In this document: piece after piece, positions 3,373 through 21,103 of the stretch | Numbering within the stretch: the stretch's first letter is position 1 | Layout of the letters: the number at the start of each line of letters is the position of its first letter | Origin: a virus | Lineage: Duplodnaviria > Caudoviricetes | DNA: 24,645 nucleotides | Strand: one strand, 5' to 3' | IMG/VR virus record: IMGVR_UViG_3300037461_001246 | Location: 1 to 24,645 of that record | Translations under genes and position numbers: made by a program | The notes under the pieces: model-generated | What the model saw: the letters and a program-made list of their open reading frames with translations, nothing else | The model's database searches: none | What the model was told of the DNA's origin: nothing

Positions 3373-3396
3373 AGGATGCCGCTGAGGGATCGCTAC
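3373..3396 (-). promoter_or_regulatory. 14-bp motif copy 1 plus -10-like hexamer (putative leaderless promoter)
   Basis: Minus strand: GTAGCGATCCCTCA-GCGG-CATCCT-CTGGGC-ATG(3366). Confidence 0.7.
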
Positions 3397-6300
3397 TACG
3401 GCGGGTTGAGTTCCATCGCCCAGACCTCGCCGATCTCCACGCCCTCGGACAGGGCCTTCGTGACGTCCAGGACCCAGGACTCCGCGACGTCCCACTGCTC
3501 GAAGAGGATCAGCGGGGGGTTCAGCTCGAGGGACCAGGACTCCCCGAGGTCGATCCCCTCCGCCCAGGCCTTCCCGAACTCCAGCGCCCAGGCGTCTCCG
3601 AACTCCCCGTGCTCCAGGACGCTGGGATTCGTGTGCACCCAGGCCTCGCCGAGGTCGAGCCCCTCGGCCATCAGGAGCATGTAGCCGCCCTCGACCACGG
3701 CCAGGTCGACCCCGACCCCGATCATGATCACCGTGGCACCGGGCACGGGGATGATCCCGTACATAGCCCCGACGGCCATGGCCCCGGAGGTAGGACCGTA
3801 CGGGGACCGCAGGCCCGTGGGGACGGCGTCCGCGGGGCCCCGCCAGTTCCCCGTCGCCTGGTTCGCCCCGTCGCCCTGGAAGGTCCCGTTGATCGGCGCT
3901 CCCATCGCCCAGGGGCTGGCCTTGTAGGCGTACCGGATCTGCCCTCCGTAGATCCCGCCCAGGGGGACAGGAGCCCCCGCCGGATCCTCCTCGAATACCG
4001 CCTCGATGTGAGGACGGCCACGCGCCCCGGAGGGGAGCGGAATCACGGCGCCGGCCTCCGAAGGCACCACGCCGCCCACCCCGAGGATGATCCCGTCCTG
4101 GTAGCCGAACGGGTTGAGTCCCGCCGCCGGCAAGGTGCTCCCCGGGGTGAGGTCGCTCTCCTGCAGTTCGCCAGGATGGACCTGCTTGTGGATCACGTAC
4201 CCGGCGGCCATGTACTCGTATCCGTTCACGGCCGGGTCCACGTACCACGCCCAGTCGCCGCCGTTGAAGCCGGTCCCCGCGGGCACGGCCTGGACGCGCA
4301 CGAGGACGCGCTCCGGAACCATCACCCGCCAGTACAGCTCAGCGTCCGCGCCCTTCGTGTTCTTCGGCCCCGCCCAGACGAGCCCCCCGGGGTCCGTGAG
4401 GGAGGCCGGTACGACCTGGAGCCAGGGGTTCGCGACGGACGTGAGGACCTCGGCGAGGAGGTCCGCGGGCTGGGTCTGCCCACCGCCGAGGGACTCGCCG
4501 GGAGCCTTCAGCTGCTCCAGCGTGGACTCGACCAGGAGGAGGCGCTCCGCGAGCTGGCGCGAGCGCTCGAGAAGCTGGTGCTGGGTGGATCCCGGGGAGA
4601 GAGCGCTCAGCGGCACCAGGCCGTTGGGGAGGTCCGAGGGCTTCGTCCAGGCGGACCAGGGGCCCGTCGGCGCGCCGTCGGTGCCCGTGGGTGAGTACTC
4701 CAGGGCGACCGCCCCTCCGTACCGCCCCCCCACGTCCACGGCCTTCCGGAAGGCGTAGCCGCCGATGCGGATGATCTCCTGCGGCGCACCGCCCCGCAGG
4801 ACACGGTCCGTCTCGATCAGGCCCCCGTACCTGCCCCGGTCCGCGTTCGGGATCCCGGTCGGTGGTCCACTGAAGGGCGCGTCGTGCTGAGCCGCGGGGC
4901 GGAGCACCGGGCCATCGTGGGCGAGCCTGGCGGATGCGCCGTCCAGCCCCGGGACGGCGATCTTCGCCCCGGGGTTCGAGGACTCGATCCCGCCGAAGAG
5001 GCCGGACTCCAGCTTCTGCCGGAGGGCCTGGTGGTTGATCCACTCCTCCTTGTCCTCGTCGTCCTGGCTGACCGAGCTCACGCGGCGCGTGTTCTCGTTG
5101 ATCACCTGGACGTCACAGCCGTCGATCGCGCCGGCCTGTTGCCCAGCGACGCGATCCTGGGCCTTCGAGATCAGCGCGTTGCGGAACGTCTCCAGGTCCT
5201 TCACGGTCTGGTAGACCTTCCGGAGCACGCGCTTCTCGTTGAAGGCCGCAGCCACGTCCTGGGCCTCGGCGGCCAGCCAGCCGGACGCGGACCCCGCCTC
5301 GAGCTCCGTGGTGTTCCCGCCGATGTCCCACGTGACGGAGAACACCATCAGGCCGGCGGCGGACTCGAACCCCGTGGTCCGCTTCGCGCTCGAGATGGTG
5401 ACGCGCTTCTGGAGCCCGGCCCACCGAGAGGTCGTCGCCGCGGCGACAGGGCCAACGGCGGCCCAGGGCGAGGCGATCTTCAGTCGGTACATGTAGGGCT
5501 TCTGGCTCTTCAGGTCGAGGATGTACTGAGCAGCCAGCAGGAGGTCGGGCTTCTGGGCCAGGTCGACGAAGTCGGGGTCCTCGACGGTGTAGCCCTGGGT
5601 GACGCCCCAGTCGGTGCCGGAGGGCTGACCGCCGCCGTCCCAGTTCGCGGGGTCGTCGGAGTAGGCGGGGCCGTGGAACGTGTCCAGCCCCCCCGCCGTC
5701 AGCGGTGGGTACCGGAAGTAGGGCGCCTCCTCCTCCAGTTCGGAGACGTTGATCTGGACGTCGACCATGGGAATCTGGGCCGGCTTGTTGGAGTTGCCGG
5801 CCTCGCAGGCGCTGTCAGGCGGCGATCCACCCGGCGGCGGAAGGTAGTTGATCAGCGCGATCGGCGGCTTCGGCTTCTCGGAGAGCACGATCAGCGGGTC
5901 GCAGAAGCCGGCTGCCTGCTGCGCCGCCGTCATCGCGTAGACCCGGTACTGGTACTCCTGAGAGTACTCCTCGCCGTCCTCACCCGTCGCGACGGCCTGC
6001 GCCTTCCCACAGATGCCGTTGTAGCGCAGCCCCGCGTCGTAGGCCGACTGGTACCCGCAGATCTCGACCGGCGGGAAGAAGTAGACCCGCCCCACGCCCA
6101 TCGCCGAGAGGGCGGGGATCGCGTCCGGGTCCACGAGCGACAGACCGTACGTGCTGGCCGCCGGAGGAATGCCGCCCCCCCAGAGCGGGCTCGAGAGCCA
6201 GATCCGCGTGGAGGTGTTCCCACACACCCACCGGTCGTAGCCGTCACCGTTCACGGTGCAGATCGCCCCGCGCCAGTCATCGGGCTCGAGACCCTCGGCC

Positions 6301-7973
6301 GCCGGGACGTCGATGTAGACCACGGCGTTCTCGGGCTGGCCAGCGATCGGCGGGAAGGGGGCGTTGGCAGCGACGAGGAAGTTCCCGACGTGGTTCGTCC
6401 GGTGCCTCTTGTCCTTCTTGTAGGTGTCCTCCTGGGTCTTCGTCCAGGCCGGCTCGAGCGTGCCGTCGGACTGCTTGTAGGTGACGGTGTCCTTCTTCTC
6501 CTTCTTCGCCCCGAACCACTCGACGAAGGTGTACGCCTTGTCGCGGTCCGGTTCCACGGCCAGCGTCACCCACTCGGAGCTGAGTCGCACGTCCTCCGCG
6601 GTGAGGGTCGTCACGTCGCGGAAGTGCCAGATCAGCGTCTGCGGGTCTACCCACGGCTGGAACTTCGGGCAGTACCGGAGCAGGGAGGAGACGACGGCGG
6701 GGAACGTGCCGGACAGCGACAGGTCGTAGATCTTCGCGTCGAGAGCCGCGAGCTCCGCGGTCTCGTACGGCACGCGATCGGGCGGGGCGCACCCGTAGAA
6801 CCGGAGCCGGTCCAGGTACCGGTCGAAGAACCACTGGGCGACCGTTCCGATGGTCTGATTCTGGCGGTCGGCCCTGTAGGAGTCCGACGCCGTGTCCCAG
6901 ACGTTGAACGCGAGCGTGCCGGTCCTGTCGTCCTCGGCGACGCGGATCTGGCGAGAGGCCCAGTAGGCGTCGTACGCGATCCAGGTCTGGTCCTCGGCGG
7001 GAGCCAGGCCCTGCTTCCCCTGGGCGACGACGCCGCGGAAGCGGCAGAGTCCGTCGTGGAAGACGCGGATCCGCTGCCCGGGGAAGAGGAACGTCCCGCC
7101 CTCGAACCGCCCGCGCAGGGTGAACTGGAACTGGTTCCCCTGGGGCCCGTACGCCTGGCGTACCTTCGCCGACCAGGACGCCTTCTGCGTCGTCCCCGTC
7201 GCGGGGAAGAGGGCGTTCAGGTCGTCGGTCGAGTACAGGGTGTTCCCGATCTCGATCTGCCAGCCGGTGCCCGGCGATCCCGTCGGCGCCCACTCGTCCG
7301 CCAGGTCGTAGACCTCGAGGTCGTCGACGTAGACGTCGCCCCAGTAGACCAGGTCGCGCAGTTCCACGCCGATCCGGTGGGCGCCGCGCAGCTGCGGGAC
7401 CGCGCCCGTCCAGTCGATCACTGACGTGCCCTTGGCCGTGGCCCCCGTCGGGTTCTTGTAGACCGTGACGCGGGTGTTCCCCGTGCCGTCCTGGAGGTCC
7501 TCGACGCGCACGCGGATCCGGACGCCGGGCGCCTCCATCTGCGCCGCGCCGATGCCCGTGTACGTCGCCCCGAGCTGGGTCTCGACGCCGGCTATCACCT
7601 TGAAGAGCCGGAGCTCGGCACTCGCCCCAACCATCGAACGGAGCCGCGCGACCAGGCAGTTATTCACGTCGAGGCCGCGGACGATGAGCCCCACCTCGCG
7701 GCGGCCGGCGTACCCCGGGTTCTTCCACCGCATCAGGAGGTCGGCCTGGTAGTCGCTCCGCCCGGGGTACGTCGTGCAGATCCCACGCCACGTGACGCCA
7801 CCGATCGACCGGCTCGCGCCCCCGTGGCCGTACCCGTCGACGACCGGGCGCGACCACCCGCTCGGGTTCACGCTGCCGGAGGCGGGAAACGTGAAGCCGG
7901 GCCAAGGGGTCGCGTACGACGGGTATCCGGCACCGTCGAACCGGAGGGCATAGAGGAGGGTGGCGTCCGGCAC
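3396..7973 (-). CDS. Large tail-tip/baseplate hub protein, 1525 aa, with N-terminal lectin-like jelly-roll and C-terminal acidic repeats
   Basis: Located two genes after the tape measure gene. Residues about 1-230 show a ConA-like beta-sandwich pattern (EVGLIVRG..LRLFKV..IRVRV..VYVDDLEV). Hub-like segment FQFTLRG..PGQRIRVFHDG..FRGVV..IAYDA. Strong GC3 codon bias. Confidence 0.8.
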   Translation of the reverse strand: MPDATLLYALRFDGAGYPSYATPWPGFTFPASGSVNPSGWSRPVVDGYGHGGASRSIGGVTWRGICTTYPGRSDYQADLLMRWKNPGYAGRREVGLIVRGLDVNNCLVARLRSMVGASAELRLFKVIAGVETQLGATYTGIGAAQMEAPGVRIRVRVEDLQDGTGNTRVTVYKNPTGATAKGTSVIDWTGAVPQLRGAHRIGVELRDLVYWGDVYVDDLEVYDLADEWAPTGSPGTGWQIEIGNTLYSTDDLNALFPATGTTQKASWSAKVRQAYGPQGNQFQFTLRGRFEGGTFLFPGQRIRVFHDGLCRFRGVVAQGKQGLAPAEDQTWIAYDAYWASRQIRVAEDDRTGTLAFNVWDTASDSYRADRQNQTIGTVAQWFFDRYLDRLRFYGCAPPDRVPYETAELAALDAKIYDLSLSGTFPAVVSSLLRYCPKFQPWVDPQTLIWHFRDVTTLTAEDVRLSSEWVTLAVEPDRDKAYTFVEWFGAKKEKKDTVTYKQSDGTLEPAWTKTQEDTYKKDKRHRTNHVGNFLVAANAPFPPIAGQPENAVVYIDVPAAEGLEPDDWRGAICTVNGDGYDRWVCGNTSTRIWLSSPLWGGGIPPAASTYGLSLVDPDAIPALSAMGVGRVYFFPPVEICGYQSAYDAGLRYNGICGKAQAVATGEDGEEYSQEYQYRVYAMTAAQQAAGFCDPLIVLSEKPKPPIALINYLPPPGGSPPDSACEAGNSNKPAQIPMVDVQINVSELEEEAPYFRYPPLTAGGLDTFHGPAYSDDPANWDGGGQPSGTDWGVTQGYTVEDPDFVDLAQKPDLLLAAQYILDLKSQKPYMYRLKIASPWAAVGPVAAATTSRWAGLQKRVTISSAKRTTGFESAAGLMVFSVTWDIGGNTTELEAGSASGWLAAEAQDVAAAFNEKRVLRKVYQTVKDLETFRNALISKAQDRVAGQQAGAIDGCDVQVINENTRRVSSVSQDDEDKEEWINHQALRQKLESGLFGGIESSNPGAKIAVPGLDGASARLAHDGPVLRPAAQHDAPFSGPPTGIPNADRGRYGGLIETDRVLRGGAPQEIIRIGGYAFRKAVDVGGRYGGAVALEYSPTGTDGAPTGPWSAWTKPSDLPNGLVPLSALSPGSTQHQLLERSRQLAERLLLVESTLEQLKAPGESLGGGQTQPADLLAEVLTSVANPWLQVVPASLTDPGGLVWAGPKNTKGADAELYWRVMVPERVLVRVQAVPAGTGFNGGDWAWYVDPAVNGYEYMAAGYVIHKQVHPGELQESDLTPGSTLPAAGLNPFGYQDGIILGVGGVVPSEAGAVIPLPSGARGRPHIEAVFEEDPAGAPVPLGGIYGGQIRYAYKASPWAMGAPINGTFQGDGANQATGNWRGPADAVPTGLRSPYGPTSGAMAVGAMYGIIPVPGATVIMIGVGVDLAVVEGGYMLLMAEGLDLGEAWVHTNPSVLEHGEFGDAWALEFGKAWAEGIDLGESWSLELNPPLILFEQWDVAESWVLDVTKALSEGVEIGEVWAMELNPP
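3399..3671 (-). repeat. Five 17-20 aa acidic Trp-containing repeats at the C-terminus of the tail-tip protein
   Basis: EGLDLGEAW, EHGEFGDAW, EGIDLGESW, EQWDVAESW, EGVEIGEVW. Confidence 0.85.
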
Positions 7974-7974
7974 G

Positions 7975-8637
7975 TCAGTTGCCCACCGTGCTCGATGAGG
8001 TCCGCTCGTACGTGCTGGTGCCCGGGCCGAGGAACGTGTAGACCAACTCCTTCCCCCACCAGTCGCCCTTCTGCTGCGGCTCGGCGGGAGCGACGCGCTG
8101 GTAGACCATCGGGTACCAGTACTGCTCGACCAGGTAGACGTCGTCGTTCACGGCGATCGCGTGGAGCGCGCCGGCCAGGGACGTGACGTTGAACTCGTCC
8201 GCGTCCACGACGGCGACGGTGCCGAGGCTGTAGAGCCCGACGCCCAGCCGGCGGATCAGGACGACGTCGCCGTTCACGAACCCGTGCCCACCGGTGATCT
8301 TCAGGTTCGGGGCCACCGCGCTGAGAACGCGGGTGGGCAGGTCGTGCTCGATCCAGACGAGCGGATCGGCGCGCTCCGACCGCGCGCGGAGGCCCTTGCG
8401 GAGCGCGGCCATCGTCGAGCGCCAGCCCTTCTGGTCCTTCGACGCGGGGTTCGGGAAGCCGAGCGTTTTCACGACGACCTGGAGGTTGAAGTTCGGGCTC
8501 GCGGGGACGACGAGAGCCTCCGTGCGATCCGCGCCCGGGTGCACCTGCAGGTCGCCACGGACGTCCTCTTCGACGTGCCCGATGCCCTCCCGCCAGAGGA
8601 GGAAGTCGCCGTAGGCGTAGCGGGTCTGGTGGCTCAC
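7975..8637 (-). CDS. Putative tail protein, 220 aa, with an HG-x-x-x-GD-x-V (FCCH-like) beta domain
   Basis: Lies immediately after the tape measure gene (the usual Dit position). KITGGHGFVNGDVVLI...VVDADEF motif is common in phage structural proteins. Confidence 0.7.
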   Translation of the reverse strand: MSHQTRYAYGDFLLWREGIGHVEEDVRGDLQVHPGADRTEALVVPASPNFNLQVVVKTLGFPNPASKDQKGWRSTMAALRKGLRARSERADPLVWIEHDLPTRVLSAVAPNLKITGGHGFVNGDVVLIRRLGVGLYSLGTVAVVDADEFNVTSLAGALHAIAVNDDVYLVEQYWYPMVYQRVAPAEPQQKGDWWGKELVYTFLGPGTSTYERTSSSTVGN

Positions 8638-8640
8638 GGT

Positions 8641-10785
8641 TCACGCCCCCGAGACGATCTTGGCCAGCTGGTCCAGGCCGTCCTCCAGCTTCTTCAGTCG
8701 GCCCTGGACGTCCTCGAGGAGGGTGGCGGCCGCCTCGATCGCGGGGGCCTTGTCGGCCAGCCGGCCGAGCTGGGAGGCCGACTCCTCGACCGCCTTCGTC
8801 AGCTCCGGCACGGACTCGGCCACGGCGGTCGAAGCTTCGGCCATGCGGCGCGCCTCCTCCGCTCCGGTGGCCATGCCCTTCGCGCCGGAGGCGAGGGAGT
8901 CCTGGGTCTGCTTCAGCGCCTCGTTGTGGCGAGCGACGGCCTCCTCGAGGTTCCGGACCTCGCCGCCACCGACGGTGTCGCGGGAGTCCTTGGGGGCGCC
9001 GCCGGTCGGCGTGTACGCGACCTCCGGCGGCTTGTACGCGGTCTCAGGCCCGGCACCCGCCCCAGCGCCACCGCGCCGGCTGGCCCGCTTCCGCCCGTAC
9101 CGCCCGTGCCCCCGGAAGTCCGCCGTGAAGGTCTCCGCGTCCGTGTCCTCGTCGGACTCGGCGCCGAACCAGGAAGCCCCGCCCCCCGCGCGCCCGAACC
9201 CGAACCCGCCCGGTCCGACCGTCATGTCCTCGCCGGTCTCGATGCCGGTGTACCGGCGGGCCCCGAGCTCGCGCCGGCGCTTCCGCATGTGCAGCGCGCC
9301 CCGCCGCTCGGCCCGGTCCCGCGCCAGCCCCTTGTCCATGTGTGACCCGGTCCACCCGGCGCCGTGCTGGGCGGTCTCGCGCGCGGCCTCCTGCTCCTCC
9401 TTCTTGCGCTTGGCCGCCTGCTCGTCCTCCAGGCGCCACCGTTCTTGGAGGGCCTTCACGGCCTCCTCGTGACCCTCCCGTCGCTCGCGCCGGATCTCCT
9501 GCTCCCGCTCGAGCCGCGTCCGGGCCTCCTCGTTCTCGGCCTTGAGGAGCTCGATCGAGTGCCGGATCTCCTGGACCTGGCCCTCCTTCTCCTCGCGGGT
9601 CTGCCTCTCGCGCTCGTACCGCTCGGCGCTGATGACAGCCGACGCGGTCTCCGCGCTGTTGCCGGCCTCGACGAGGTCCTCGTACCGCTGGCGCTCCTCG
9701 ACGGCCTGGCGCTCGGCATCGGTCGAGGCGTAGAGGAGCTCCATGCGCCGGCGGGAACCGGTCTCGGCGCGCTCGGACTTCTCCGCCGCGGTCTTCTCCT
9801 TCTCAGCCGCCTGCTTCTCCCGCTCGAGGGCGATCTCCCGCCGCAGCCTCGCCTCGACCAGGCCGGCGAGGTCGCGCTCCCCGGCGGCCTGCAGCCGCCG
9901 GATCATCTCCACCTGGGAGGCGTGCTTCGCCTCCTCCTCGGTGAGCTGGGAGATCCGCAGGTACTGCTCGGCCTGCTCGCGGAGGGCGACCCGCTTGTCG
10001 GACGCGGCCTTCGCGATCGCCTCGTCCCGGGCCTTGACCGCGTCGGCGTCCTTCTTCGCCCGCTCGGCGGAGGCCTCGGCCTCCTTCGCCTGACGCTCGC
10101 GCTCCTTGGCGGCCCGCTCCGCGCCCTGCCGCTGGAGCTCGGCCTTGTAGATCGAGAGCCCGGACTTCAGCGCCATGTCCTCGCCGCTGGCGTCGCGGAG
10201 CTTCTGCTGGTTCTCGATCGACTTGCGCTCGGACTCGCTCTTGGCGTTGAGGAGAGCCGTCTCGTCCCGGAGGGCCTGGAGCCGGTCCTCGATCTTCTTC
10301 CTGCGCTCGGACTCGGCCTTCAGGGCCTCCTGGTTCCGCTTGACCTCCTCCTCCCAGGCGCGCTGCTGCTCCTCGCGGAGGCGCCGCTGCTGCTCGGCGG
10401 CCTCGGCGGACCTCTTCCCCAGGAGCCCGACCAGGCCCGTCACGACCGACAGGCCCGCCATGACCGGCCCGCCGGCCATGAACGCACCGAGGCCCTGGGA
10501 GACCATCTGCCCCAGCGCGCCGGCCGTCCCCTCGGCGTTCTGGGTCATCATCAGGAGCCCGGTCGCGACCTGGCCCGCGCCCCGCTTGAGGGTCTCCATG
10601 TGGAGGCCGGTCTTCCCGAAGCCGGCCATCTTCCGGTTGGCGGTCTCGGCGGACCCGGCGAGCCGGTCGAACTCCCGGCGGCCCGTCGCCCCCATCTTCT
10701 CGATGATCCCCGAGAGCATGTCCCGGGCCCGGACGACGACGGCAAGTTCGTGCTGGCTCGACTCAGGCACGGCGGGCGGCCTCAC
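8641..10785 (-). CDS. Tape measure protein, about 710 aa (alternative GTG start at 10770)
   Basis: Follows the chaperone frameshift pair. N-terminal ELAVVVRARD motif, Gly/Ala hydrophobic segments and a long E/R/K/A/Q helical region. Confidence 0.8.
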   Translation of the reverse strand: MRPPAVPESSQHELAVVVRARDMLSGIIEKMGATGRREFDRLAGSAETANRKMAGFGKTGLHMETLKRGAGQVATGLLMMTQNAEGTAGALGQMVSQGLGAFMAGGPVMAGLSVVTGLVGLLGKRSAEAAEQQRRLREEQQRAWEEEVKRNQEALKAESERRKKIEDRLQALRDETALLNAKSESERKSIENQQKLRDASGEDMALKSGLSIYKAELQRQGAERAAKERERQAKEAEASAERAKKDADAVKARDEAIAKAASDKRVALREQAEQYLRISQLTEEEAKHASQVEMIRRLQAAGERDLAGLVEARLRREIALEREKQAAEKEKTAAEKSERAETGSRRRMELLYASTDAERQAVEERQRYEDLVEAGNSAETASAVISAERYERERQTREEKEGQVQEIRHSIELLKAENEEARTRLEREQEIRRERREGHEEAVKALQERWRLEDEQAAKRKKEEQEAARETAQHGAGWTGSHMDKGLARDRAERRGALHMRKRRRELGARRYTGIETGEDMTVGPGGFGFGRAGGGASWFGAESDEDTDAETFTADFRGHGRYGRKRASRRGGAGAGAGPETAYKPPEVAYTPTGGAPKDSRDTVGGGEVRNLEEAVARHNEALKQTQDSLASGAKGMATGAEEARRMAEASTAVAESVPELTKAVEESASQLGRLADKAPAIEAAATLLEDVQGRLKKLEDGLDQLAKIVSGA

Positions 10786-11173
10786 GCTCGGCTGCGGTAC
10801 GGAGGCAAGTATGCCAGTGAGGGATCGCTACCTGGACCGCGTCGAGCCAAACCCGGGCCTGGTCCTCGATGCCACCGGGCGCGGGCAGGAACCCCGCTTC
10901 GTACGCCCGGAGCGATCGCAGGAAGTCACCGATCCACGGCTCCCAGAGTGCGGTCGGGCATCGGTCGAACCAGACGCGCCCCCTGACGCACTTCCCGCAG
11001 GAGCCGTCGCTGCACCGCCAGCACGGGACCGAGACCACCCCGTCCTGCCCCGGGCGCAGCACAGCGGGCCGGTCGCAGCCCCACTGCCGGCGTACCTCGA
11101 CGTCCCTGCATCCCTGACCGCACGTCATCGGGAGCAGCCCGAAGGCCGCCGAGATGGCGATTAGGATTTTCCC
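10763..11173 (-). CDS. Tail assembly chaperone, frameshifted (gpT-like) portion
   Basis: -1 frame entered at GGGAAAA: KILIAISAAF...GFLPAPGGIEDQ...; the LP-x-x-GG-x-x-DQ motif is typical of gpT-like chaperones. Confidence 0.8.
   Translation of the reverse strand, partial: GKILIAISAAFGLLPMTCGQGCRDVEVRRQWGCDRPAVLRPGQDGVVSVPCWRCSDGSCGKCVRGRVWFDRCPTALWEPWIGDFLRSLRAYEAGFLPAPGGIEDQARVWLDAVQVAIPHWHTCLRTAAEREAARRA
10808..10831 (-). promoter_or_regulatory. 14-bp motif copy 2 plus -10-like hexamer upstream of the tape measure gene
   Basis: Minus strand: GTAGCGATCCCTCA-CTGG-CATACT, embedded in gpT codons with atypical A/T third positions (GTA, CCT, CAT, ACT). Confidence 0.7.
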
Positions 11174-11571
11174 GCGTCGAGGTCCCCGAAGAGGTTCAGG
11201 TCCCGGATGGCGGCCGCGAGCTCGACCCGGTGCCGCGGCAGGAGGCAGGCGATCGTCTCGTCCGTGGGCGTCCCGCGATCGACGTCGGCCACCCCGTACT
11301 TCGGCCCGTTCGCCCAGTGCCAGGGACGGAGCCCCCCGCGCAGTAGCCGGAGGTCCAGGGTGCCGGGGTCCTCGCGGTCGTCCAGGCACCGGGACCACTC
11401 GTACGCCGTCAGGATCCCGAGGTGGAAGGTGACGGCCTTCTCCGCCCGCTTCCGGTTCTCCTCGGCGATCCGGGCCTGGTCCTCCTCGGATGCACCCGGG
11501 GGGACGGGTAGCGGACGCTCGTCCTCCAGGACGAAGGGGACGCGCTTCCTCGGGTCGATTGCGACGGGCAC
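11161..11571 (-). CDS. Tail assembly chaperone (gpG-like), 136 aa
   Basis: GTG 11571 with SD GGGAGG. Lies between tail tube and tape measure genes and ends ...DAGKS* over a slippery heptamer. Confidence 0.8.
   Translation of the reverse strand: MPVAIDPRKRVPFVLEDERPLPVPPGASEEDQARIAEENRKRAEKAVTFHLGILTAYEWSRCLDDREDPGTLDLRLLRGGLRPWHWANGPKYGVADVDRGTPTDETIACLLPRHRVELAAAIRDLNLFGDLDAGKS
11167..11173 (-). other. Programmed -1 ribosomal frameshift slippery site G-GGA-AAA
   Basis: X-XXY-YYZ heptamer encoding Gly-Lys just before the gpG stop; the -1 frame is open for 134 more codons; same arrangement as lambda G/GT. Confidence 0.85.
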
Positions 11572-11573
11572 GC

Positions 11574-11894: not shown

Positions 11895-11902
11895 GCGGCC
11901 TC

Positions 11903-13060: not shown

Positions 13061-13075
13061 GGTGTGCCTCCGTCG

Positions 13076-13543
13076 TCAGACCGCGGTGTAGGGATCCGTC
13101 CGCGTCGTCCTGTATTCCACCTCGATGTCTAGCTGTACCTCGACCCAGGGCTCCTGGGGGTCGTCGGAGAAGATCACGTTCGAGACGAGCTTCGTCCCGA
13201 CCGCGTAGCCCCCGCGCTTGGCGTTCGCCAGGACGGCCTTCTCCATGTCCGCCAGGAAGCGATCCGCCTCGTCGGCCGCGCCGTCGCCGGCGCCCTCCGG
13301 AACCTCGAGCTCCCCCACGAGGGTCATGGGCAGCCTCCGGTTCACGTTGGGCCAGGCCAGCTCCTGGTAGGTCTCCCGCCCCGTGGCGATGCAGATGAAC
13401 GGGGTCGGTGCCGCCTGGGGCGCCACCAGTCCGCGGTACACCGCCCGGACGGTCGTCTGGTAGCCGTTCGCGGGCAGGATCGCCTCGAGCGCCGCCTTCA
13501 GGTTGGCGATCACGTTCCGGCGCGTGGAGAGGGGGGACGGCAC
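13076..13543 (-). CDS. Tail terminator/completion protein, 155 aa
   Basis: RRNVIANLKAALEAI..ANGY.T, PFICI..G.E and IEVEYRT...DP pattern; synteny. Confidence 0.75.
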   Translation of the reverse strand: MPSPLSTRRNVIANLKAALEAILPANGYQTTVRAVYRGLVAPQAAPTPFICIATGRETYQELAWPNVNRRLPMTLVGELEVPEGAGDGAADEADRFLADMEKAVLANAKRGGYAVGTKLVSNVIFSDDPQEPWVEVQLDIEVEYRTTRTDPYTAV

Positions 13544-13546
13544 GGG

Positions 13547-14164
13547 CTACCCTCCTCCCTTCCCGCCCACCTGGGTCGGAAACGGCGGCGGGTTCCCCAG
13601 CGACCGCGCGACGGCGTTCGGGAGGATGACCGCGCGCGTCGGGGCGTCCTCCTCAAAGCTCGCGCGGAAGTGCATGCGCGCGGGGATGGTCACGCGCCGC
13701 TTCGAGTACCAGCGGCCCCGCCGGTCCTTCCAGACGAGCATCCGGCGGGTGTAGGTGTACGTGCGCTCGCCGACCGTGAGCGCTCGACCGTCCGGCAGGG
13801 TGGCACGCAGGGCCGCCCGCTTCACCGTGATGGTCCGGTCGGTCTTCGCCTCGATCACCCCACCGGCCTCGTGGATCCAGGCGTACCGCGACCTGGTGAA
13901 GACCCGCGCCCCGACCGTCGCCACGTTCGACGGGTCCGACGTCAGGTCCGCCACCTCGAAGGACCGCGCCAGGTCGCCGGACTGGCGCTTCAGCCCGGGA
14001 CGGCCCCGCATGAACTTCCGCTGCCAGGGACCGTTCACGGCCGCGAACCCGCGGAGGTACCGGAGCAGGGCCCCGTGGAGCTCCTTCGCGAGGCGCTGGG
14101 GGAACCGCCGCAGCGCCTCGAAGGCGTCGTCCCCCTCGAACCCGGTGGTCACGCCGATGGCCAT
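13547..14164 (-). CDS. Neck/virion morphogenesis protein (HK97 gp10/Mu gpG-like), 205 aa
   Basis: QSGDLARS, YAWIHEAGGVI and VTIPAR motifs; Arg-rich; TGATG overlap with the upstream gene. Confidence 0.75.
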   Translation of the reverse strand: MAIGVTTGFEGDDAFEALRRFPQRLAKELHGALLRYLRGFAAVNGPWQRKFMRGRPGLKRQSGDLARSFEVADLTSDPSNVATVGARVFTRSRYAWIHEAGGVIEAKTDRTITVKRAALRATLPDGRALTVGERTYTYTRRMLVWKDRRGRWYSKRRVTIPARMHFRASFEEDAPTRAVILPNAVARSLGNPPPFPTQVGGKGGG

Positions 14165-14766
14165 CAGCGGTACCTCACGTACGGCGCGAGCTTCCGCAGC
14201 ACGTCCGGGAGGAGGTCCACCCCCGGCTCACCGAAGGACATGCTCGCCCCGCCACCGCTCTGGACGTTCGCCCCCAGGGTCGCCCGCCGCTGGAGCAGGT
14301 AGGCCACCTGCATCTCGCACGCGAGCGCCAGGTCCGGGTACCCCGCGACCAGGTTGGCGTCCGTGGCCGCGAGCCCGCCCGTCCACTTCACCCGCAGGAC
14401 CTGCGGCCCGCTCACCAGGGTCGGCCCGTAGAACTCCACGATCCCCAGGCGGGTGTTCGCCACGTAGTCGTCGGAGTCGACCAGGGACGAGGCCTCGGCG
14501 AAGTCGTCCGGGTCCAGGGCGTTGCGGACCTCGGTCAGGGCCGTGATCGGCCAGGCGGGGAGTTGGACGACCATCTGCCCCGGGCGGACGTCGAAGTCCC
14601 GGGTCCGCTCCTCGAGGAAGAACTCGCGGCCGCAGTGGCGCTCGAAGGCGGCCGAGACCTCGGGGATCAGCTGGGTGAGGAGCGTGTCCGCCGCGGTCCA
14701 TGACTTCCCGCCGACCTCCAGGAAGGCCTTCACCCGGGCCGCGGTGGTCAGCGAGAGAACGGTCAC
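14164..14766 (-). CDS. Head-tail connector (gp6/gp15-like adaptor), 200 aa
   Basis: LTT.ARVKAFL...DTLLTQLI..VS..FERHCGR.F...PDLALAC...LAPY pattern; SD GGGAGG. Confidence 0.85.
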   Translation of the reverse strand: MTVLSLTTAARVKAFLEVGGKSWTAADTLLTQLIPEVSAAFERHCGREFFLEERTRDFDVRPGQMVVQLPAWPITALTEVRNALDPDDFAEASSLVDSDDYVANTRLGIVEFYGPTLVSGPQVLRVKWTGGLAATDANLVAGYPDLALACEMQVAYLLQRRATLGANVQSGGGASMSFGEPGVDLLPDVLRKLAPYVRYR

Positions 14767-14784
14767 GGCGAGGCCCTCCCGGCG

Positions 14785-14949
14785 TCAGTTGTGGGGCGGG
14801 CGCCTCCGCCGGCGGCACCCGCAGGGCTCCTCCCGCCCGCGGTGCATGCGATCCCACGTCCCGCCCGGACGCGGTCGAGCCTGCGCCTTCCCACCCTTGG
14901 GCTCGGGCGCAGGCTCGCGCTCGGACTTCTGGTCCTCCTGTCGGCTCAC
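14785..14949 (-). CDS. Small basic hypothetical protein, 54 aa
   Basis: Below the ORF-track cutoff. GTGA overlap with the upstream stop; MSRQEDQKSEREPAPEPKGGKAQARPRPGGTWDRMHRGREEPCGCRRRRRPPHN*; fills the gap almost exactly. Confidence 0.6.
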   Translation of the reverse strand: MSRQEDQKSEREPAPEPKGGKAQARPRPGGTWDRMHRGREEPCGCRRRRRPPHN

Positions 14950-15362
14950 GCGAAGCCGACGGTCAGGTCCGCGGCCGCCTCGGGCTGGCTCGTCTCGCCG
15001 CCCCGGCAGACGTAGGCGGACGCGCAGTAGAAGGTGTCGGTCCCGACCGTGAAGACCAGCCGGAGCCAGCGCTTCACGTTCCGCGTCGCGACGCGGATCA
15101 CCTTCTGCCCGGCGTTCGTCGTGATCTGGGGGAGGGCCCCCGAGGTCACGTCGCCGTAGGACGCCGGCGCCCCGGCCCCGTTGTCGTCGCTCTCCTGGAG
15201 CTTGACGTCGAGGGTGGCGCCGGCCGCCGGGGCCCCCGCGTAGACCAGGAACTCGACGATCTCGTAGCCGGCGCCGTCGACGTCCGTGCCGTTGTGGGCC
15301 GCGACGGCCGCGTTCTGCGGCTCGAGCTCCTCGCCGAACTTCACCGCCCTGTTCTCGCGCAT
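14946..15362 (-). CDS. Capsid cement/decoration protein, Bbp16-like, 138 aa
   Basis: NGTDVD..GYE...TLDVKLQESDD...KRWLRL beta-sandwich pattern; located after the capsid gene. Confidence 0.65.
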   Translation of the reverse strand: MRENRAVKFGEELEPQNAAVAAHNGTDVDGAGYEIVEFLVYAGAPAAGATLDVKLQESDDNGAGAPASYGDVTSGALPQITTNAGQKVIRVATRNVKRWLRLVFTVGTDTFYCASAYVCRGGETSQPEAAADLTVGFA

Positions 15363-15421
15363 CTCAGGATCTCCGTTTCTCGGTTGCCCCGCTCAGCGCG
15401 GGATCAGGACCAGACCTTCGA

Positions 15422-15823
15422 TCAGGCCTCGACGAACCCGCAGAGCTGGCAGTAGCAGTCGCCCGTCGCGGACTGCAGCTGGTAGCCCAGGGCCTTCGCG
15501 ACCGTGCACTCGACGGGCGGGTCGAAGTCCACGACCTTCTCCCCCATCGACGCCGCGGAGACGCACTGCGGCACGAGCGTCAGGACGACGGCCGGCGTGC
15601 CCGCCGGGTCCTCCACGATCTCCGCCACCGGGTACTCCCCGGCGGTCTTGTTGGCGAGCAGCACCTTCGTGATCCAGTGCCGCTTCGAGGCGACGGCCGC
15701 CTTGAGCAGGATCGGGGCCGCGCCGGTGTTCACCGCCGCCGCCCCGCCGGCCACGAAAGGCTTCACCGCGACCCACGCGCCCGCGCTGTCGAGGAGCTTC
15801 CCGTTCTTGAACGTGCTGCACAT
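15422..15823 (-). CDS. Putative head decoration protein, paralog B, 133 aa
   Basis: SD AAAGGA; shares KAAVA.KRHWIT, NKT..E.P, F.PP.E and GDCY....G.VE with the neighbouring gene. Confidence 0.75.
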   Translation of the reverse strand: MCSTFKNGKLLDSAGAWVAVKPFVAGGAAAVNTGAAPILLKAAVASKRHWITKVLLANKTAGEYPVAEIVEDPAGTPAVVLTLVPQCVSAASMGEKVVDFDPPVECTVAKALGYQLQSATGDCYCQLCGFVEA

Positions 15824-15856
15824 GGAAGTCGGTTCCTTTCCGCCAGCCCTCAGGGG

Positions 15857-16231
15857 CTAGTCCTCGACGTAGCCGACGATCGTGACGTAGCAGTCGCCCA
15901 CCGCGGCGACCGCCGCCCCGTCGATCTTGAGGCCGGCGGCGACCTCGATCGGCGGGTTGAACTCCACGAAGTCGCCGCCCGGGCTCACGTCCGGGTCGCC
16001 CGGGCAGAGCGCCGCGAGCAGCGTCGGCGTGCCGTCGTACAGTTGCACGGTCGGCGTCTCGGCGCTGGTCTTGTTGACCGCCTTCGCGGCGGTGATCCAG
16101 TGGCGCTTGCCGGCCACGGCGGCCTTGATCGCGCGCTTGGTCGTGTCGTCGATCAGCGTCCCGTTGATCGCCGAGAACGGCGTCACGGGAGCGCCGTCGA
16201 TCTGGTGCTTCCCGAAGTTGATCGAGCCCAT
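15857..16231 (-). CDS. Putative head decoration protein, paralog A, 124 aa
   Basis: ATG 16231 with SD GGGAGG; directly after the major capsid gene; paralogous to 15422-15823. Confidence 0.75.
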   Translation of the reverse strand: MGSINFGKHQIDGAPVTPFSAINGTLIDDTTKRAIKAAVAGKRHWITAAKAVNKTSAETPTVQLYDGTPTLLAALCPGDPDVSPGGDFVEFNPPIEVAAGLKIDGAAVAAVGDCYVTIVGYVED

Positions 16232-16243
16232 GTCGGTCCTCCC

Positions 16244-16280
16244 GGTCAGGGGCCCGGGTGACACGCCCGGGCCCGCGACC
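16244..16280 (-). other. GC-rich stem-loop after the major capsid gene (mRNA-stabilising or attenuating)
   Basis: gggcccggg (16250-16258) pairs with cccgggccc (16266-16274) around a 7-nt loop, extended by ggtc/gacc; followed by an SD rather than a U-tract. Confidence 0.55.
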
Positions 16281-16288
16281 GTCTACGG

Positions 16289-17524
16289 TCAGGCGTTGTT
16301 CACGCGCGCGTCGCGGATCGCCACGAACGACTCCGTCCGCAGCCGCAGCACGTCCATCTGGAAGAAGAGCACGAACCAGACCTGGTCGTACTCGGCGCCC
16401 CGCTCGAACAGCGGCCGGATCTCGCTCCCGCCCCACCGGGCGACGAGCAGGTCCGCCCAGTTCCCGAACACGATCGGCGAGCAGTCGCTCGCGGTGCCCT
16501 TCGTGTTCGTGATCGGGAGCTGGGTCGTGACCAGCCACTCGTAGCCGATGGCCTGCGCCAGCGCGGCGTCCGAGAGGATCGGGCTCATCGGGAGGCGGAA
16601 CACCCCGCCCGTGTCGCCCGAGAACTGCGCGACCATCTCCTTCTTGACGACCCGGCGCGTCTTCGGGTGGCTGACCATGGCGAGCTTCCCGCGGAGCGCG
16701 TTCGCGTCCTCGAGCTTCCCGATCAGGTCGGCCAGCTTCTTGAACGTCGGGTCGCCGCCGTTCGTGCCGATCGCGACGACCTGGCTCCCGCCCACCAGCA
16801 TCTCGCTGTAGACCAGGAGCCCCTTCGGCTGCCCGCTCGCCCCGGTGCCCGTGAGGCACGCCAGGTCGATGACCTCCGCCTGCTTCAGCGTGAGGTCCTC
16901 GCGGATGTAGGGCTCGATCGACGGGTCGGCCATCGAGAGGAGCGACCGGTCGCACTTCACGAGCATGCCGTACTTGCGCGGCTGCATCTGCTTCAGCGCC
17001 GTGGCCGGCTTCGTCTCGGAGGGGGCGGCGTTGTTGTCGATCCAGCCGCCGCTCACCCCGGCCGTGATCTCGGGCACGCGGTACGGCGCGCCCTTCGGCG
17101 TGACCACGCGGGCCCCCGCCTTGAGGACCACCGTCTCCGGGCGCAGCGACGTGATCGGCGTCGGGTCCGTCTCCGGCGAGATCAGGTACGCGCCCGCCGC
17201 GTCGTCCCCGGACGACATGGCCGCGCGCTTCGAGATCTCGCGCTCGTACTCGAAGCCCTTCCAGGCCTCGTCCGCGGACCGGCCGTCGCGGATCAGCGAC
17301 GCCGCCCGCATCGCCCCCATCATCCGGTAGGGGCGCGCCTGCTCCGGGTCCTGGCCGTCGCTCCCGATCGGACGCGGGTTCGTCTTCACCGCCTCCTCGA
17401 GCGCCCGGATGCGCTCGTCCGTGGCCTTGCGGCTCGCCTTGCCCTCGTCGAACTCCCGCTTGATCTCCGCGATCAGCGTCTCGACGTTGGCGACCGGCGT
17501 CTGGGTCTTCGTGTCCTCGGGCAT
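16289..17524 (-). CDS. Major capsid protein, HK97 fold, 411 aa
   Basis: Coiled-coil delta-like N-terminus, AGAYLI.PE, DLACLTGTGASGQPKGL, IVFGNW and MDV..LRTESF motifs. Confidence 0.92.
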   Translation of the reverse strand: MPEDTKTQTPVANVETLIAEIKREFDEGKASRKATDERIRALEEAVKTNPRPIGSDGQDPEQARPYRMMGAMRAASLIRDGRSADEAWKGFEYEREISKRAAMSSGDDAAGAYLISPETDPTPITSLRPETVVLKAGARVVTPKGAPYRVPEITAGVSGGWIDNNAAPSETKPATALKQMQPRKYGMLVKCDRSLLSMADPSIEPYIREDLTLKQAEVIDLACLTGTGASGQPKGLLVYSEMLVGGSQVVAIGTNGGDPTFKKLADLIGKLEDANALRGKLAMVSHPKTRRVVKKEMVAQFSGDTGGVFRLPMSPILSDAALAQAIGYEWLVTTQLPITNTKGTASDCSPIVFGNWADLLVARWGGSEIRPLFERGAEYDQVWFVLFFQMDVLRLRTESFVAIRDARVNNA

Positions 17525-17534
17525 TTGTGGCTCC

Positions 17535-18575
17535 TCACTTCCCGGTGACGGCCGCGTGCAGCCGCCTGACCACGTCCTGCTGCGATCGCGACTGCGCGGC
17601 GGCCTCCGCCTGCGCAGCCAGGTGCGCCTCCACCTTCGCCATCCGCTCCGCCAGCGGCTTCAGCGCGACCTCGACAGCCTGGCGCACCTGCTCGGCCGTC
17701 GCGCCCTTCGAGCCCTTCGAGCCCTTCGAGCCCTCCGATCCCTCCTCGGAGGCCTCCTCCTCGTCCTCGCCGTCCTCTCCCTCGTCCGCGCCCAGGTCGT
17801 CCGCGATCGCGTCGAGCATGTCGGCGCCCTGGCGGAACGTGCCGGCGATGTCCTTGATCGCCGCCGCGTTCTCGCTCGCGCCCGCCTTCGGGGCCTCGTC
17901 CTCGTCGTCCGGCTGCTCGTCCGCGCGCTTCGTCACGGTCACGTCCTGGAGGGCCTTTGCCAACGCCTCCCAGGATGCGCGTAGCGATCCCTCACCACCC
18001 CCCAGCTGGCGCATGGCCTCCGCGTCCTCCCTCCGGAGGGTCCCCGCGGCCGCCGCCTGGCGCACGAGCGCGACCGCCCCGGAGTCCGCCCCGACCGGCA
18101 CGGCGGAGAGCTCGATCAGCTCGTGCTTCGTCGAGACTCCCCACGCCCCCCGCTCCTTCTCGCTGGGGATCGGGTCGCGCATCTCGAGGACCTTGAAGCC
18201 GACCGAAACCGCCCGCTGGATCCCGGCCTTGACCAAGCGGTAGACGAAGTCCGCGAACGGGTGGTCCTCGGCGGTCGCGAACCGCACCCTCGCCCGGAGC
18301 TCGCCGGCCTCCTCGTCCACCTCTGCGCTGACCGGCACGCCCAGGGGGGGCTTGTCCTCGAACCGGTTGTGCGCCCAGAGGAGCGCCCCGGCCCGCAGGA
18401 ACCGGTCCAGGACCCACCCCTTCGCCAGGAGGATCAGGCCGTCCGTCGCCACCTCCTCGGTGGCGGCAACGAACTCGACGACCCGGTCCTCGCCACCCGC
18501 CTCCTCGGGCGTGAGGGCGCGCGACTGGAACGGCAGGACGGCGCGGCGGCTGAAGGGGGGCTTGCGCTGACGCAC
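17535..18575 (-). CDS. HK97-family prohead protease with acidic scaffold-like C-terminal half, 346 aa
   Basis: LLWAHN (His), AVSVGF and LIELSAVPVGAD (Ser) motifs; SD AGGAGG. Confidence 0.9.
   Translation of the reverse strand: MRQRKPPFSRRAVLPFQSRALTPEEAGGEDRVVEFVAATEEVATDGLILLAKGWVLDRFLRAGALLWAHNRFEDKPPLGVPVSAEVDEEAGELRARVRFATAEDHPFADFVYRLVKAGIQRAVSVGFKVLEMRDPIPSEKERGAWGVSTKHELIELSAVPVGADSGAVALVRQAAAAGTLRREDAEAMRQLGGGEGSLRASWEALAKALQDVTVTKRADEQPDDEDEAPKAGASENAAAIKDIAGTFRQGADMLDAIADDLGADEGEDGEDEEEASEEGSEGSKGSKGSKGATAEQVRQAVEVALKPLAERMAKVEAHLAAQAEAAAQSRSQQDVVRRLHAAVTGK
17703..17738. repeat. 9-bp tandem repeat (gcccttcga x3 plus one variant) encoding SEG-SKG-SKG-SKG
   Basis: Seen directly; in frame within the protease C-terminal linker. 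Confidence 0.85.
17972..17994 (-). promoter_or_regulatory. 14-bp motif copy 3 (inverted) plus -10-like hexamer inside the protease gene
   Basis: Minus strand: TGAGGGATCGCTAC-GCG-CATCCT; surrounding codons are atypical (CTA, GCA, TTG). Confidence 0.6.
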
Positions 18576-18591
18576 GGGTGAATCCTCCTGC

Positions 18592-21072
18592 TCAGATGTC
18601 CATGACCAGCCCCTCGGCGCACCGGCACTGGATGATCTCCTCCGGCTCGCCGTCGGGGTCGCACGGGAACCTGCAGCCGTTCGCGTAGACGCCGCCCGTC
18701 ACCGGGACCACGACGCCGTCGAGCGCCACGTGGGAGTGCCGCACGCGCTCGTCCCCGGCCGTCGTCCACTCCCGTCCCTTGACGTGGGGGTCCTCCGCGG
18801 CCAGGACCTGGGTGCACTCGAACCGCGCGCCGTTCGCCGCCTGGCCCACCTCGGACCGGGCGATCATCCGGGCCCGCCGCTCCTCGACCCCGAGCTCCCG
18901 CTCCAAGTCCAGAGCCAGCGCCGTGACCGGCTTCTTCTCGCCCAGGCCCTCGACCAGCGCCCCCTTCACCCGCTTCACCAGGGTGTCGTTCACCTGGTGC
19001 GCCAGCCGGATCTCCTTCTCCTTCAGGAACTCGAGGACCGCCGGCGGCGTGGTCACGGAGACCCCGAACTCGGTGGGCCCGCCGAGCTGGCGCAGGAGGG
19101 CGTCGATCGCCGACCTAGCCGTCCGCTTGTACTCGGGCCCGGCCAGCCGCTTCAGGTACTCGTCCCACTCGGCGCGCTTGCGCTTCAGGTACTCGTCGAG
19201 CTCGCCCTCGGTCATCCGGACGAGGACGCTCCCGGAGCGCCCCCCGCGGAGCTCGCCGAGGACGTCCTCCCCCACCCGCCGGAAGTGCTTTCGGACGAGC
19301 GCCAGGAAGGCCCGCTCCCGAGGGGCGTACACGCGCACGGCCAGGTCCATCCAGACCCGGAGCCGCCGGCGACGGCCGGCGTCGCGGATGCTGATCGCCG
19401 GGAAGGCCCTGGCGCCACGGTCGGGCAGCTCCAGCTCGGACGGGTCGGCCGCGGCACCGCCCTCCGGCTTGCCGGGAGGAGGAGGAGGCGAGGACGGAGG
19501 CTTCGGGGACGCCGGTTTCTCCTCCGCCTGGGCCGCGGCCGGGTCGACCAGAGCGTCGACCTCCTCCGGCTTCAGGGTCGGGAAGGACGCCAACAGGGTC
19601 GCCTTGGCGCTGTCCGGGTTGAGCTCGCCCGAGGCGACCATCAGGACGACCTCGAGGAGCGACGCGATCTGCGCCCCGTTGAGGGCCGTGTCCTGGACGG
19701 CGTCCGCGCCCTCCGGGGCAGCCGCGCCCTCTGCGGGGGCGGGCTCGTCCGCCTCCAGGTCGATCGGCTGGGTCACGTCCTTCAGCCGCGCCAGCCCGAA
19801 GCTCACCGTCCCGACGTCGCCCTCCTCGGGGGGCAGCGCCGGCAGGCCCGTCTCGAGGTGGTCGTTCGCCACGTTCCGCGGCCAGCCCGCGCCCACGATG
19901 GCCGCCAGGCTCGCCAGGCGCTCGCTGTAGGCGTCCCTGAGCGCCTCCACGCCCGAGACGTCGAACGCCCCCCAGACCACGCGCCGGCCCGCCACGGAGG
20001 CCCTGGCGCGCTCCATCGGGTCCGTCCGCGCCCGGAAGAGCCGCTGCTCCAGGAGCCGCTCGACCATCCCCATCATCGGCGCGATCGTCTGCTCGTGGAA
20101 CACCCGCCGGGACTCGCGCGCCGTCGCGTACTTCAGGTCCTGGGTCAGCCCCAGCAGGAACTGCGGCACGCCCCAGACGGCCCCGATCTCCTCCCGGCTC
20201 CACTTCCGCTGCTCGAGGAACTCCATGTCCGTGTGCGTCGGCAGGACGTTCTTCACGTCCGCCCCGCCCTGGACCACCTTCACGCGCCAGGCCTTCGCCG
20301 ACCCGACGTGCTGGTCCTCGAACTCCTTCCGCGTCTGGTCGACCTGGTCGGACGTCAGGAACCCAGCCTCCTTCGGGATGGAGAGCACGGTCCCGACGGT
20401 CGCCCCGTTGCGGAAGAAGGCTTGGTTCCACGACGCAGCGTGGGTGTCCGACTCGATGCCGATCCGGGCCGCCTCGAGCGGCGCTAGGCCCCGCTCCGGC
20501 TCCTCCGGGTCGATCAGGCGGAGCATCAGGACCTGGTGCCAGGGGTACGGGACCGTCTGCCCGGTCCGCGGGTCCCGGTACTTCCAGCCCACGGCGAGCT
20601 TCGTCTGCGGGTCCCGGACGAGCTCCCAGGTCGCCCGGCCGCCCGGGAGGACGTACAGCTCGCGCGGGACCTCCCGCTCCCCGAGCGTCTCGCCCTTGCC
20701 CTCGAACACCCAGGCCGACTCGCCGCGCAGCGCCAGGTGGAGCCCGAGCAGCGGCCAGAGGTCCGCCCCGTCCAGGTTCGGGTTCGGCCGCTGGAACAGC
20801 TCGTACCAGTCCCCCTCGAGGACCTCCTGCTGGTCGTCGGCGCTCCCGGTGTACAGGCGCCAGGTCGCCGCGGAGAAGCCCTGGGCCCACGCGCGGCAGG
20901 CGGCGTACACGTAGGCGTGGTACTTGAACGGGCTCCCCGTCGGGACGCCCTGGGCGTAGCGCTGGGCGATCTCCCAGGCGGTCATCCAGTCGGTGGGATC
21001 GCCGAAGCGAGAGTCGCCGGCAGTGCGGACCCGGGGAGCCAGAGCGGCACGTAGCCGGCGGAGGAGGCCCAT
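18592..21072 (-). CDS. HK97-family portal protein fused to a MuF/SPP1 gp7-like head morphogenesis domain, 826 aa
   Basis: Portal motifs RPNP, GLAPLEAA, FFRNGA, DMEFLEQRK and WGVP; Pro/acidic linker; MuF motifs RARMIARSE, REWTTAGDERVRHSH..LDG and EIIQCRC. Confidence 0.9.
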   Translation of the reverse strand: MGLLRRLRAALAPRVRTAGDSRFGDPTDWMTAWEIAQRYAQGVPTGSPFKYHAYVYAACRAWAQGFSAATWRLYTGSADDQQEVLEGDWYELFQRPNPNLDGADLWPLLGLHLALRGESAWVFEGKGETLGEREVPRELYVLPGGRATWELVRDPQTKLAVGWKYRDPRTGQTVPYPWHQVLMLRLIDPEEPERGLAPLEAARIGIESDTHAASWNQAFFRNGATVGTVLSIPKEAGFLTSDQVDQTRKEFEDQHVGSAKAWRVKVVQGGADVKNVLPTHTDMEFLEQRKWSREEIGAVWGVPQFLLGLTQDLKYATARESRRVFHEQTIAPMMGMVERLLEQRLFRARTDPMERARASVAGRRVVWGAFDVSGVEALRDAYSERLASLAAIVGAGWPRNVANDHLETGLPALPPEEGDVGTVSFGLARLKDVTQPIDLEADEPAPAEGAAAPEGADAVQDTALNGAQIASLLEVVLMVASGELNPDSAKATLLASFPTLKPEEVDALVDPAAAQAEEKPASPKPPSSPPPPPGKPEGGAAADPSELELPDRGARAFPAISIRDAGRRRRLRVWMDLAVRVYAPRERAFLALVRKHFRRVGEDVLGELRGGRSGSVLVRMTEGELDEYLKRKRAEWDEYLKRLAGPEYKRTARSAIDALLRQLGGPTEFGVSVTTPPAVLEFLKEKEIRLAHQVNDTLVKRVKGALVEGLGEKKPVTALALDLERELGVEERRARMIARSEVGQAANGARFECTQVLAAEDPHVKGREWTTAGDERVRHSHVALDGVVVPVTGGVYANGCRFPCDPDGEPEEIIQCRCAEGLVMDI

Positions 21073-21079
21073 GCCCCGG

Positions 21080-21103
21080 AGCGTAGCGGTGAGGGATCGC
21101 TAC
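21080..21103 (-). promoter_or_regulatory. 14-bp motif copy 4 plus -10 hexamer (putative leaderless promoter of the portal gene)
   Basis: Minus strand: GTAGCGATCCCTCA-CCGC-TACGCT-CCGGGGC-ATG(21072); no SD. Confidence 0.75.

Follow-up and report, generated by a model that had tools for sequence, protein, structure and literature searches.

Four exact copies of a box at a fixed distance from -10-like hexamers mark candidate separate late promoters in a phage contig

The window analysed here is an entire contig of 24,645 bases, entered as a linear virus record with a GC content of 72% and judged to be about 71% complete, the early region being almost wholly missing. The phage contig was detected in wetland runs. 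All morphogenesis genes are carried on the minus strand, in the order HTH gene, terminase, head and tail (Table 1), and the collagen-like gene at the left end is cut by the end of the contig. The HTH gene, of the XRE type, is the only regulator-like gene in the contig. At positions 23915-24530, a plus-strand piece, in which a primase gene ends and a RusA-like resolvase gene begins, lies inside an apparent single minus-strand gene; this piece is probably an assembly artefact or a rearrangement. The capsid stop codon is followed directly, at 16240-16265, by a GC-rich stem-loop that lacks a U run; it may serve as an attenuator or processing site and so adjust the level of capsid relative to the downstream products.

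Table 1. Positions of the boxes, hexamers, genes and related prophage sites (window coordinates unless a genome is named; units are the proposed transcription units).
Feature	Positions	Strand	Remarks
Box copy 1 (15-mer)	21089..21103	-	Intergenic, between terL stop (21144) and portal start
Box copy 2, flipped	17981..17995	-	Within protease gene, codons 194-199, variable linker after protease domain
Box copy 3	10817..10831	-	Within frameshifted tail-chaperone frame
Box copy 4 (14/15)	3382..3396	-	First G is the last base of the stop codon of the large tail gene
-10-like TACGCT (copy 1)	21080..21085	-	Portal ATG (21072) 7 nt on, no SD-like site
-10-like CATCCT (copy 2)	17972..17977	-	Predicted start about 17965
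-10-like CATACT (copy 3)	10808..10813	-	Predicted start about 10800
-10-like CATCCT (copy 4)	3373..3378	-	ATG (3366) 6 nt on, no SD-like site
Leaderless-type -10 TACGGT of HTH gene	23209-23214	-	No box
Leaderless-type -10 TAGGCT of terS	22852-22857	-	No box
Cro/C1-type HTH protein	22855..23202	-	PF13443, E 4e-9; directly before terS
Terminase small subunit (terS)	22303..22845	-	phrog_4044, phrog_979 (terS and terL entered together)
terL	21144-22364	-	Follows terS; stop at 21144
Portal fused to Mu F-like head morphogenesis domain	18592..21072	-	PF04860, PF04233, phrog_2662; first gene of unit 1
Prohead protease, acidic C-terminal part	17535..18575	-	PF04586, phrog_80; hosts box copy 2
Major capsid protein	16289..17524	-	PF05065, phrog_617, 442, 4204, 290 (entry includes downstream genes); main target of unit 2
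Small head genes, adaptor, terminator, tail tube, tail chaperones	after capsid	-	Unit 2
Tail chaperone slip site GGGAAAA	11167-11173		
Frameshifted tail-chaperone frame	10763-11170	-	Hosts box copy 3
Tape measure-like protein	8641..10770	-	Weak phrog_1272 match (E 0.002), length, position after chaperones; first gene of unit 3
Gene after tape measure gene	7975-8637	-	Unit 3
Large tail gene, 1525 aa	3396-7973	-	Unit 3
Virion-type protein, function not assigned	2752..3366	-	phrog_5417, phrog_4176 (entry includes following genes); first gene of unit 4
DUF2460, two small proteins, C92 peptidase, collagen-like gene	after 2752-3366	-	PF09343, PF05708
G368 element sites	G368:C9:26933, 31934, 39592, 50431		L348, L349
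G534 extended -10 box CTAGGGTTCC and related site	G534:C20:35774, 40323, 49215 and 31388		L350, L351

Dispersed among these genes are four exact copies of the 14-mer GTAGCGATCCCTCA, at 3383-3396, 10818-10831 and 21090-21103 on the minus strand and, inverted, at 17981-17994 on the plus strand. This box is the sole dispersed exact repeat in the window that passes a third-order Markov test (E 2.6e-9). The next base added to the 14-mer is C in three of the four copies and G (at 3382) in the remaining one, which yields a 15-mer that reads GT-N11-AC in either direction. Two symmetry registers fit the box: (i) an even one, with the core AG(C/G)GATC(C/G)CT; and (ii) an odd one, corresponding to GT-N11-AC. 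When up to three mismatches are allowed, six matches are found in the window versus 2.45 expected, the two non-exact ones (three mismatches each) being at chance level. The site 13088-13101, well placed some 30 nt ahead of where the tail tube gene starts, was rejected as a fifth, degenerate copy: it has three mismatches, lacks a -10-like hexamer and is at chance level. The copies are not assembly artefacts, since a 13,106-nt contig from run X1, possibly the sample of origin, carries three of them in one piece and without differences, and a 302-nt contig from another study spans the fourth.

Each box is followed by a -10-like hexamer. Read as a 15-mer, the box is separated from YANNCT by exactly 3 nt in all four cases, the flipped copy included, so that the latter fills the same 15 positions relative to the hexamer as the other three. 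The pattern YANNNT occupies 0.57% of minus-strand positions, and the probability of finding it at the same offset at all four boxes is about 2e-8; when four positions were drawn at random, all of them had YANNNT in a 10-nt range in 5 of 200,000 draws. When words at a constant distance from YANNCT were sought without bias, the central heptamer of the box was recovered at every one of the four box sites, and 0 of 100 random site sets reached the count of the window. Placing the -10 at -12 to -7 puts the box at about -30 to -16, with its centre at -23 (as counted from the leaderless ATG at 3366). A search of the whole window gave no sigma-70 -35/-10 pair, and the sequences upstream of the four boxes have no -35-like hexamer in common. 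The original prediction had described these four exact 14-mers with one of them inverted, hexamers of the form YANNCT at a gap from the 14-mer of 4 nt for three copies and of 3 nt for the flipped one, the absence of a recognisable -35, and rare codons at both intragenic copies; all of these were found as described. In codon usage both intragenic boxes are outliers: among 6,403 nine-codon windows, no more than 6 and 24 have scores this low.

A survey of 24 gene starts (two of them entered one codon off) detected YANNNT 6-7 nt upstream of four: those of the HTH gene, terS, the portal gene and gene 2752-3366. None of these four starts has an SD-like site, which is present at 16 of the 20 other starts. 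The minus strand of the window holds only seven TANNNT hexamers, three of which stand at leaderless-type starts. Since YANNNT at 6-7 nt goes together with missing SD-like sites, the host appears to use leaderless messages, and the portal gene and gene 2752-3366 are predicted to be translated from leaderless mRNA. The other two starts are box-free: there is no box at terS, and none within six mismatches before the HTH gene's own -10. C is found at -12 in three of the four box promoters and T in both box-free ones (terS and HTH), a pattern that fits a box compensating for a weak -10.

The two remaining copies lie within genes. Copy 2 sits in a poorly conserved linker of the protease, and its predicted start is located 441 nt before the capsid ATG; an internal GTG at 17936 in the protease gene, with AGGA 7 nt upstream, might speculatively be the internal start of a scaffold-like C-terminal part. 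From the copy 3 promoter, a leader of about 30 nt with GAGG would lead to the tape measure GTG at 10770. Regarding the placement of the copies ahead of gene blocks, the assignments to the portal, capsid and tape measure blocks stand, while that of the 3383 copy to a distal-tail block had to be corrected: this copy lies downstream of the large tail gene and heads gene 2752-3366 together with the small genes that come after it, and the genes after the tape measure gene belong under the 10818 copy. In RNA run X2, 13 contigs match the phage at at least 99% over positions 1-20000, none of them bridging a box, and the deepest among those listed (4.0-6.3) lie downstream of copy 2; such contigs give no starts, strand or levels, and they were left out of the promoter evidence.

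The proteins nearest to those of the window share 48-60% (capsid), 58-76% (terminase) and 43-59% (protease) identity with them, and protein-led scans of IMG/VR, metagenomes and GTDB contigs returned only distant loci or a 1.5-kb piece. In three of the four closest capsids (P0002, P0003 and P0005), there is a hydrophobic, signal-peptide-like N-terminal extension that is absent from the window capsid. No peptide trace of the box, in either orientation, was detected in the five closest proteases, and none of 216 more distant loci (2.5 Mb) contains the box at up to three mismatches with the 3-nt gap. The exact box has 51 matches in IMG/VR, all of them single; three have a -10-like hexamer (one repeated low-GC sequence) and none is leaderless. 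A search for a half-box plus -10 plus ATG gave 78 single matches, none of which starts a long ORF or resembles a window protein. The expected conservation of the box in relatives was thus not found, neither in those five proteases nor at the tail chaperone site of the prophage in genome G549. Operator-like sets of other kinds were observed in two further phages: (i) in a prophage of a Myxococcota MAG, three exact copies of an 18-base palindrome-containing site (L245:2078, 9452 and 15001), one of them shortly before the terminase genes, which resemble a dispersed operator system; and (ii) in another phage (L180:1955-6500), seven GTAC-flanked operator-like boxes at gene starts upstream of the terminase.

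Syntenic prophages were found in Planctomycetota, the phylum of a Pirellulaceae genome: 2 of 401 genomes by the capsid profile and 4 of 401 by the tail tube profile, the latter being run on Planctomycetota genomes alone. None was detected in 251 genomes of the Myxococcota phylum (protease profile), nor in 401 Acidobacteriota and 301 Gemmatimonadota genomes (capsid or protease profiles). This distribution gives a weak hint that the phage host is a member of the Planctomycetota. The G549 prophage is a frameshift-ridden tail piece with the same slip site as the window, and its chaperone segment homologous to copy 3 has neither the box nor a -10. At the chaperone frameshift site, 14 bases are letter-identical between the window (11160-11180) and G549 (L358:1912-1926), the proteins being well diverged.

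Two of the syntenic prophages carry signals of their own. In the late module of the G368 prophage (contig C9), four copies of GTYGWCA stand 8 nt before TACGCT, located: (i) before terS; (ii) in the protease linker, some eight codons away from where window copy 2 aligns; (iii) before the tube gene; and (iv) before a tail gene. Elsewhere in this 6.3 Mb genome, the combination of element and hexamer occurs only at a second terS copy, and the control gave none. Two of the G368 sites embed the element in a 22-bp dyad; at two, a perfect -35-type hexamer lies within the element, a mere 8 nt from the -10. The extended -10 box CTAGGGTTCC occurs three times in the G534 genome, each time within the prophage late module; one of these copies precedes a start codon by 7 nt, and among the four related extended -10 sites two do so by 7-8 nt. 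Both patterns were spotted by eye after the fact, and an exact-word scan did not recover them; the G319 prophage has no such repeated late-promoter-like set. Taken with that reservation, the lineage seems to keep its late genes under separate promoters while exchanging the sequence that is recognised, and such turnover fits a phage-encoded reader.

That the four boxes mark late promoters is very likely. The reading that best accounts for them, with a probability of roughly 0.6, is that there are four separate late promoters at which the box acts as an upstream element, bound by a probably phage-encoded activator instead of a -35. The original proposal of separate late promoters with a box near -23 is thereby upheld by the fixed spacing, the two leaderless starts, the rare codons and the signals of the two syntenic prophages. 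As to the mechanism, activation by a phage factor is the best candidate, with somewhat better than even odds. An activator at about -30 to -16 would replace the -35 contact, and the host RNA polymerase would then open the weak -10. The four units thus defined would comprise: (i) portal to protease; (ii) capsid to chaperones; (iii) tape measure to tail; and (iv) the last tail genes and the probable lysis genes. The promoter within the protease gene would provide the high-copy capsid and tail tube proteins with a message of their own, and terS and the HTH gene would use box-free TANNNT promoters, independent of the factor. What points to an activator is that the spacing is exact, that the -10s are weak and the -35 missing, and that late genes of well-studied phages are positively controlled. 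A dimeric phage factor would bind the box; the flipped copy stands in register with the others, which implies a binder with approximate two-fold symmetry or, alternatively, action through DNA bending. Against an activator dimer it must be said that the box is perfectly identical even at asymmetric positions, which is beyond the need of a symmetric dimer.

The HTH protein is one candidate for the binder of the box, which may equally be encoded in the missing part of the genome. It ends in a C-x-C-Y-D-C-L tail, common to three aligned matches out of its 50. P0187, P0188 and P0206 form, together with the window protein, a small Cro/C1-type family with a conserved C-terminal C-Y-D-C-L-(Y/F)-P, possibly a metal-binding motif; no family name was found for HTH proteins bearing it. 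A search for a locus of this family gave none, the only result being an HTH-domain match on another contig of G534, and no homologue was detected in G368. Among the 27 and 9 proteins scanned, from a contig that lacks the early region, none matched a family named as a late activator at E <0.01. A bolder proposal, unlikely as it stands, is that the cysteine-tailed Cro/C1-type protein would be a late activator that reads an asymmetric 15-bp spacer site both ways and replaces the -35, where XRE-type proteins normally repress, and that the lineage would rebuild its late promoter set, even inside coding sequence, whenever the site of the regulator changes.

The main rival to activation is repression: the boxes would be operators of a phage repressor, for instance of the Cro/C1 type, which blocks four -10-only late promoters until late infection or during lysogeny. 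This is fairly unlikely. The box does lie in the spacer and works in both orientations, the sole regulator-like gene of the contig encodes an XRE-type HTH protein, and a site of an XRE-family C protein that covers the -35 represses, according to the available part of PMC2632904. Repressors, too, use spacer sites, and terS and the HTH gene seem to be served by -10-only promoters, so the missing -35 alone demands no activator. Nevertheless, steric blocking would not need an exact gap to the -10 in four of four cases; three of the four -10s are weak, with C at -12; neither terS nor the HTH gene's own promoter has a box; and the late genes of well-studied phages are under positive control, as stated in the available part of PMC10695390.

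It is very unlikely that a host protein, either a transcription factor or an alternative sigma factor, reads the box and ties late expression to the state of the host. No phage binder emerged from a contig without most early genes, which leaves room for such a factor. By contrast, reading an asymmetric box in both orientations is not what one would expect of a sigma factor, and the exact box is absent from five assorted high-GC genomes; the box plus hexamer with one mismatch is at background level in four Planctomycetota genomes (1, 0, 1 and 1 versus 1, 0, 2 and 0 in the control), and the related prophages use different elements, which fits turnover together with a phage gene. Finally, it is extremely improbable that the boxes are recombination, packaging or RNA-structure sites with incidental hexamers: one copy is inverted, as in invertible segments, and the copy 2 region folds better than its shuffles (z -2.8), but no such folding is seen at the remaining three (z -0.8, 0.6 and 1.0), no RNA hairpin shared by the four boxes and no Rfam match of note were found, the X1 contig holds three copies undisturbed, no joint falls at a copy among the 15 entries listed of 49, and the fixed -10 spacing and the leaderless starts speak against it.

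Spacer activation at separate late promoters has a known counterpart. The late promoters of phage P1 lack a -35. In the available parts of the sources, P1 is described as having 11 late promoters; these carry a 9-bp inverted repeat to which Lpa binds, and the lpa gene lies directly before the terminase genes (PMC10695390); the repeat is centred at -22, with SspA as co-activator (PMC3152322), and Lpa is required for the late genes (PMC8198154; PMC8201110). The boxes resemble this system in that: (i) several separate late promoters share one element (here four, in a contig that is 71% complete); (ii) a dyad, here a quasi-dyad, stands near -22 (here -23), just upstream of the -10; (iii) a -10 is present (YANNCT in four of four) and a -35 absent; and (iv) the HTH gene, like lpa, lies directly before the terminase genes. 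Unlike P1, the element is a 15-bp imperfect dyad (as compared by length and symmetry), one copy is flipped, starts are leaderless, two copies are intragenic, a box is missing at terS, the proteins scanned from the contig include none resembling Lpa, and the host is not shown to be an enterobacterium. By analogy, the boxes most likely work like P1 late promoters, without being placed in the P1 Lpa family.

Other systems share fewer features with the boxes. As with Mu C and P2 Ogr, there are several late promoters, a dyad site for a phage activator (here a presumed one) and the polymerase of the host, but the site lies here at -30 to -16 and not upstream of -30; the activator sites are given as -30 to -55 for Mu C and about -55 for P2 Ogr in the available part of PMC3152322. 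The operators of XRE proteins (C proteins and lambdoid repressors) likewise consist of a quasi-palindrome near a leaderless start, and an XRE-type HTH gene is present in the contig; in contrast to the C-protein switch, where two tandem operators are located at the regulator's own gene (PMC2632904, available part), single sites stand here at structural genes and none at the HTH gene. The position of the box between the -35 and -10 regions is shared with the sites of lambda Q and MerR, whereas no -35 hexamer lies upstream of the four boxes. Lambda Q and MerR bind between the -35 and the -10 of promoters that keep their -35, and Q serves one long operon. The stoperators of mycobacteriophage L5 are dispersed exact copies, often in genes, which are asymmetric, oriented with transcription and not tied to a -10. 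The boxes are also dispersed exact copies, some of them in genes, but one copy is flipped and all four stand at a fixed gap to the -10. Literature searches on this box or on flipped late-promoter sites returned nothing relevant, most subscription papers lying outside their scope.

No principle is changed by these results, given that late promoters that occur in several copies and have leaderless starts are already known in outline; the distinctive points are the working flipped copy and the parallel in related prophages. If the preferred reading of activated late promoters is right, the box would represent a compact, orientation-tolerant 15-bp activator site in a phage whose host, perhaps a planctomycete, is poorly studied, and it would add a case of spacer activation to the textbook one of P1 Lpa. 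The flipped copy would then be a natural experiment on the contact between factor and polymerase. The comparison with G368 and G534 suggests, moreover, that the layout (separate late promoters, one of them in the protease gene) outlasts the recognition sequence.
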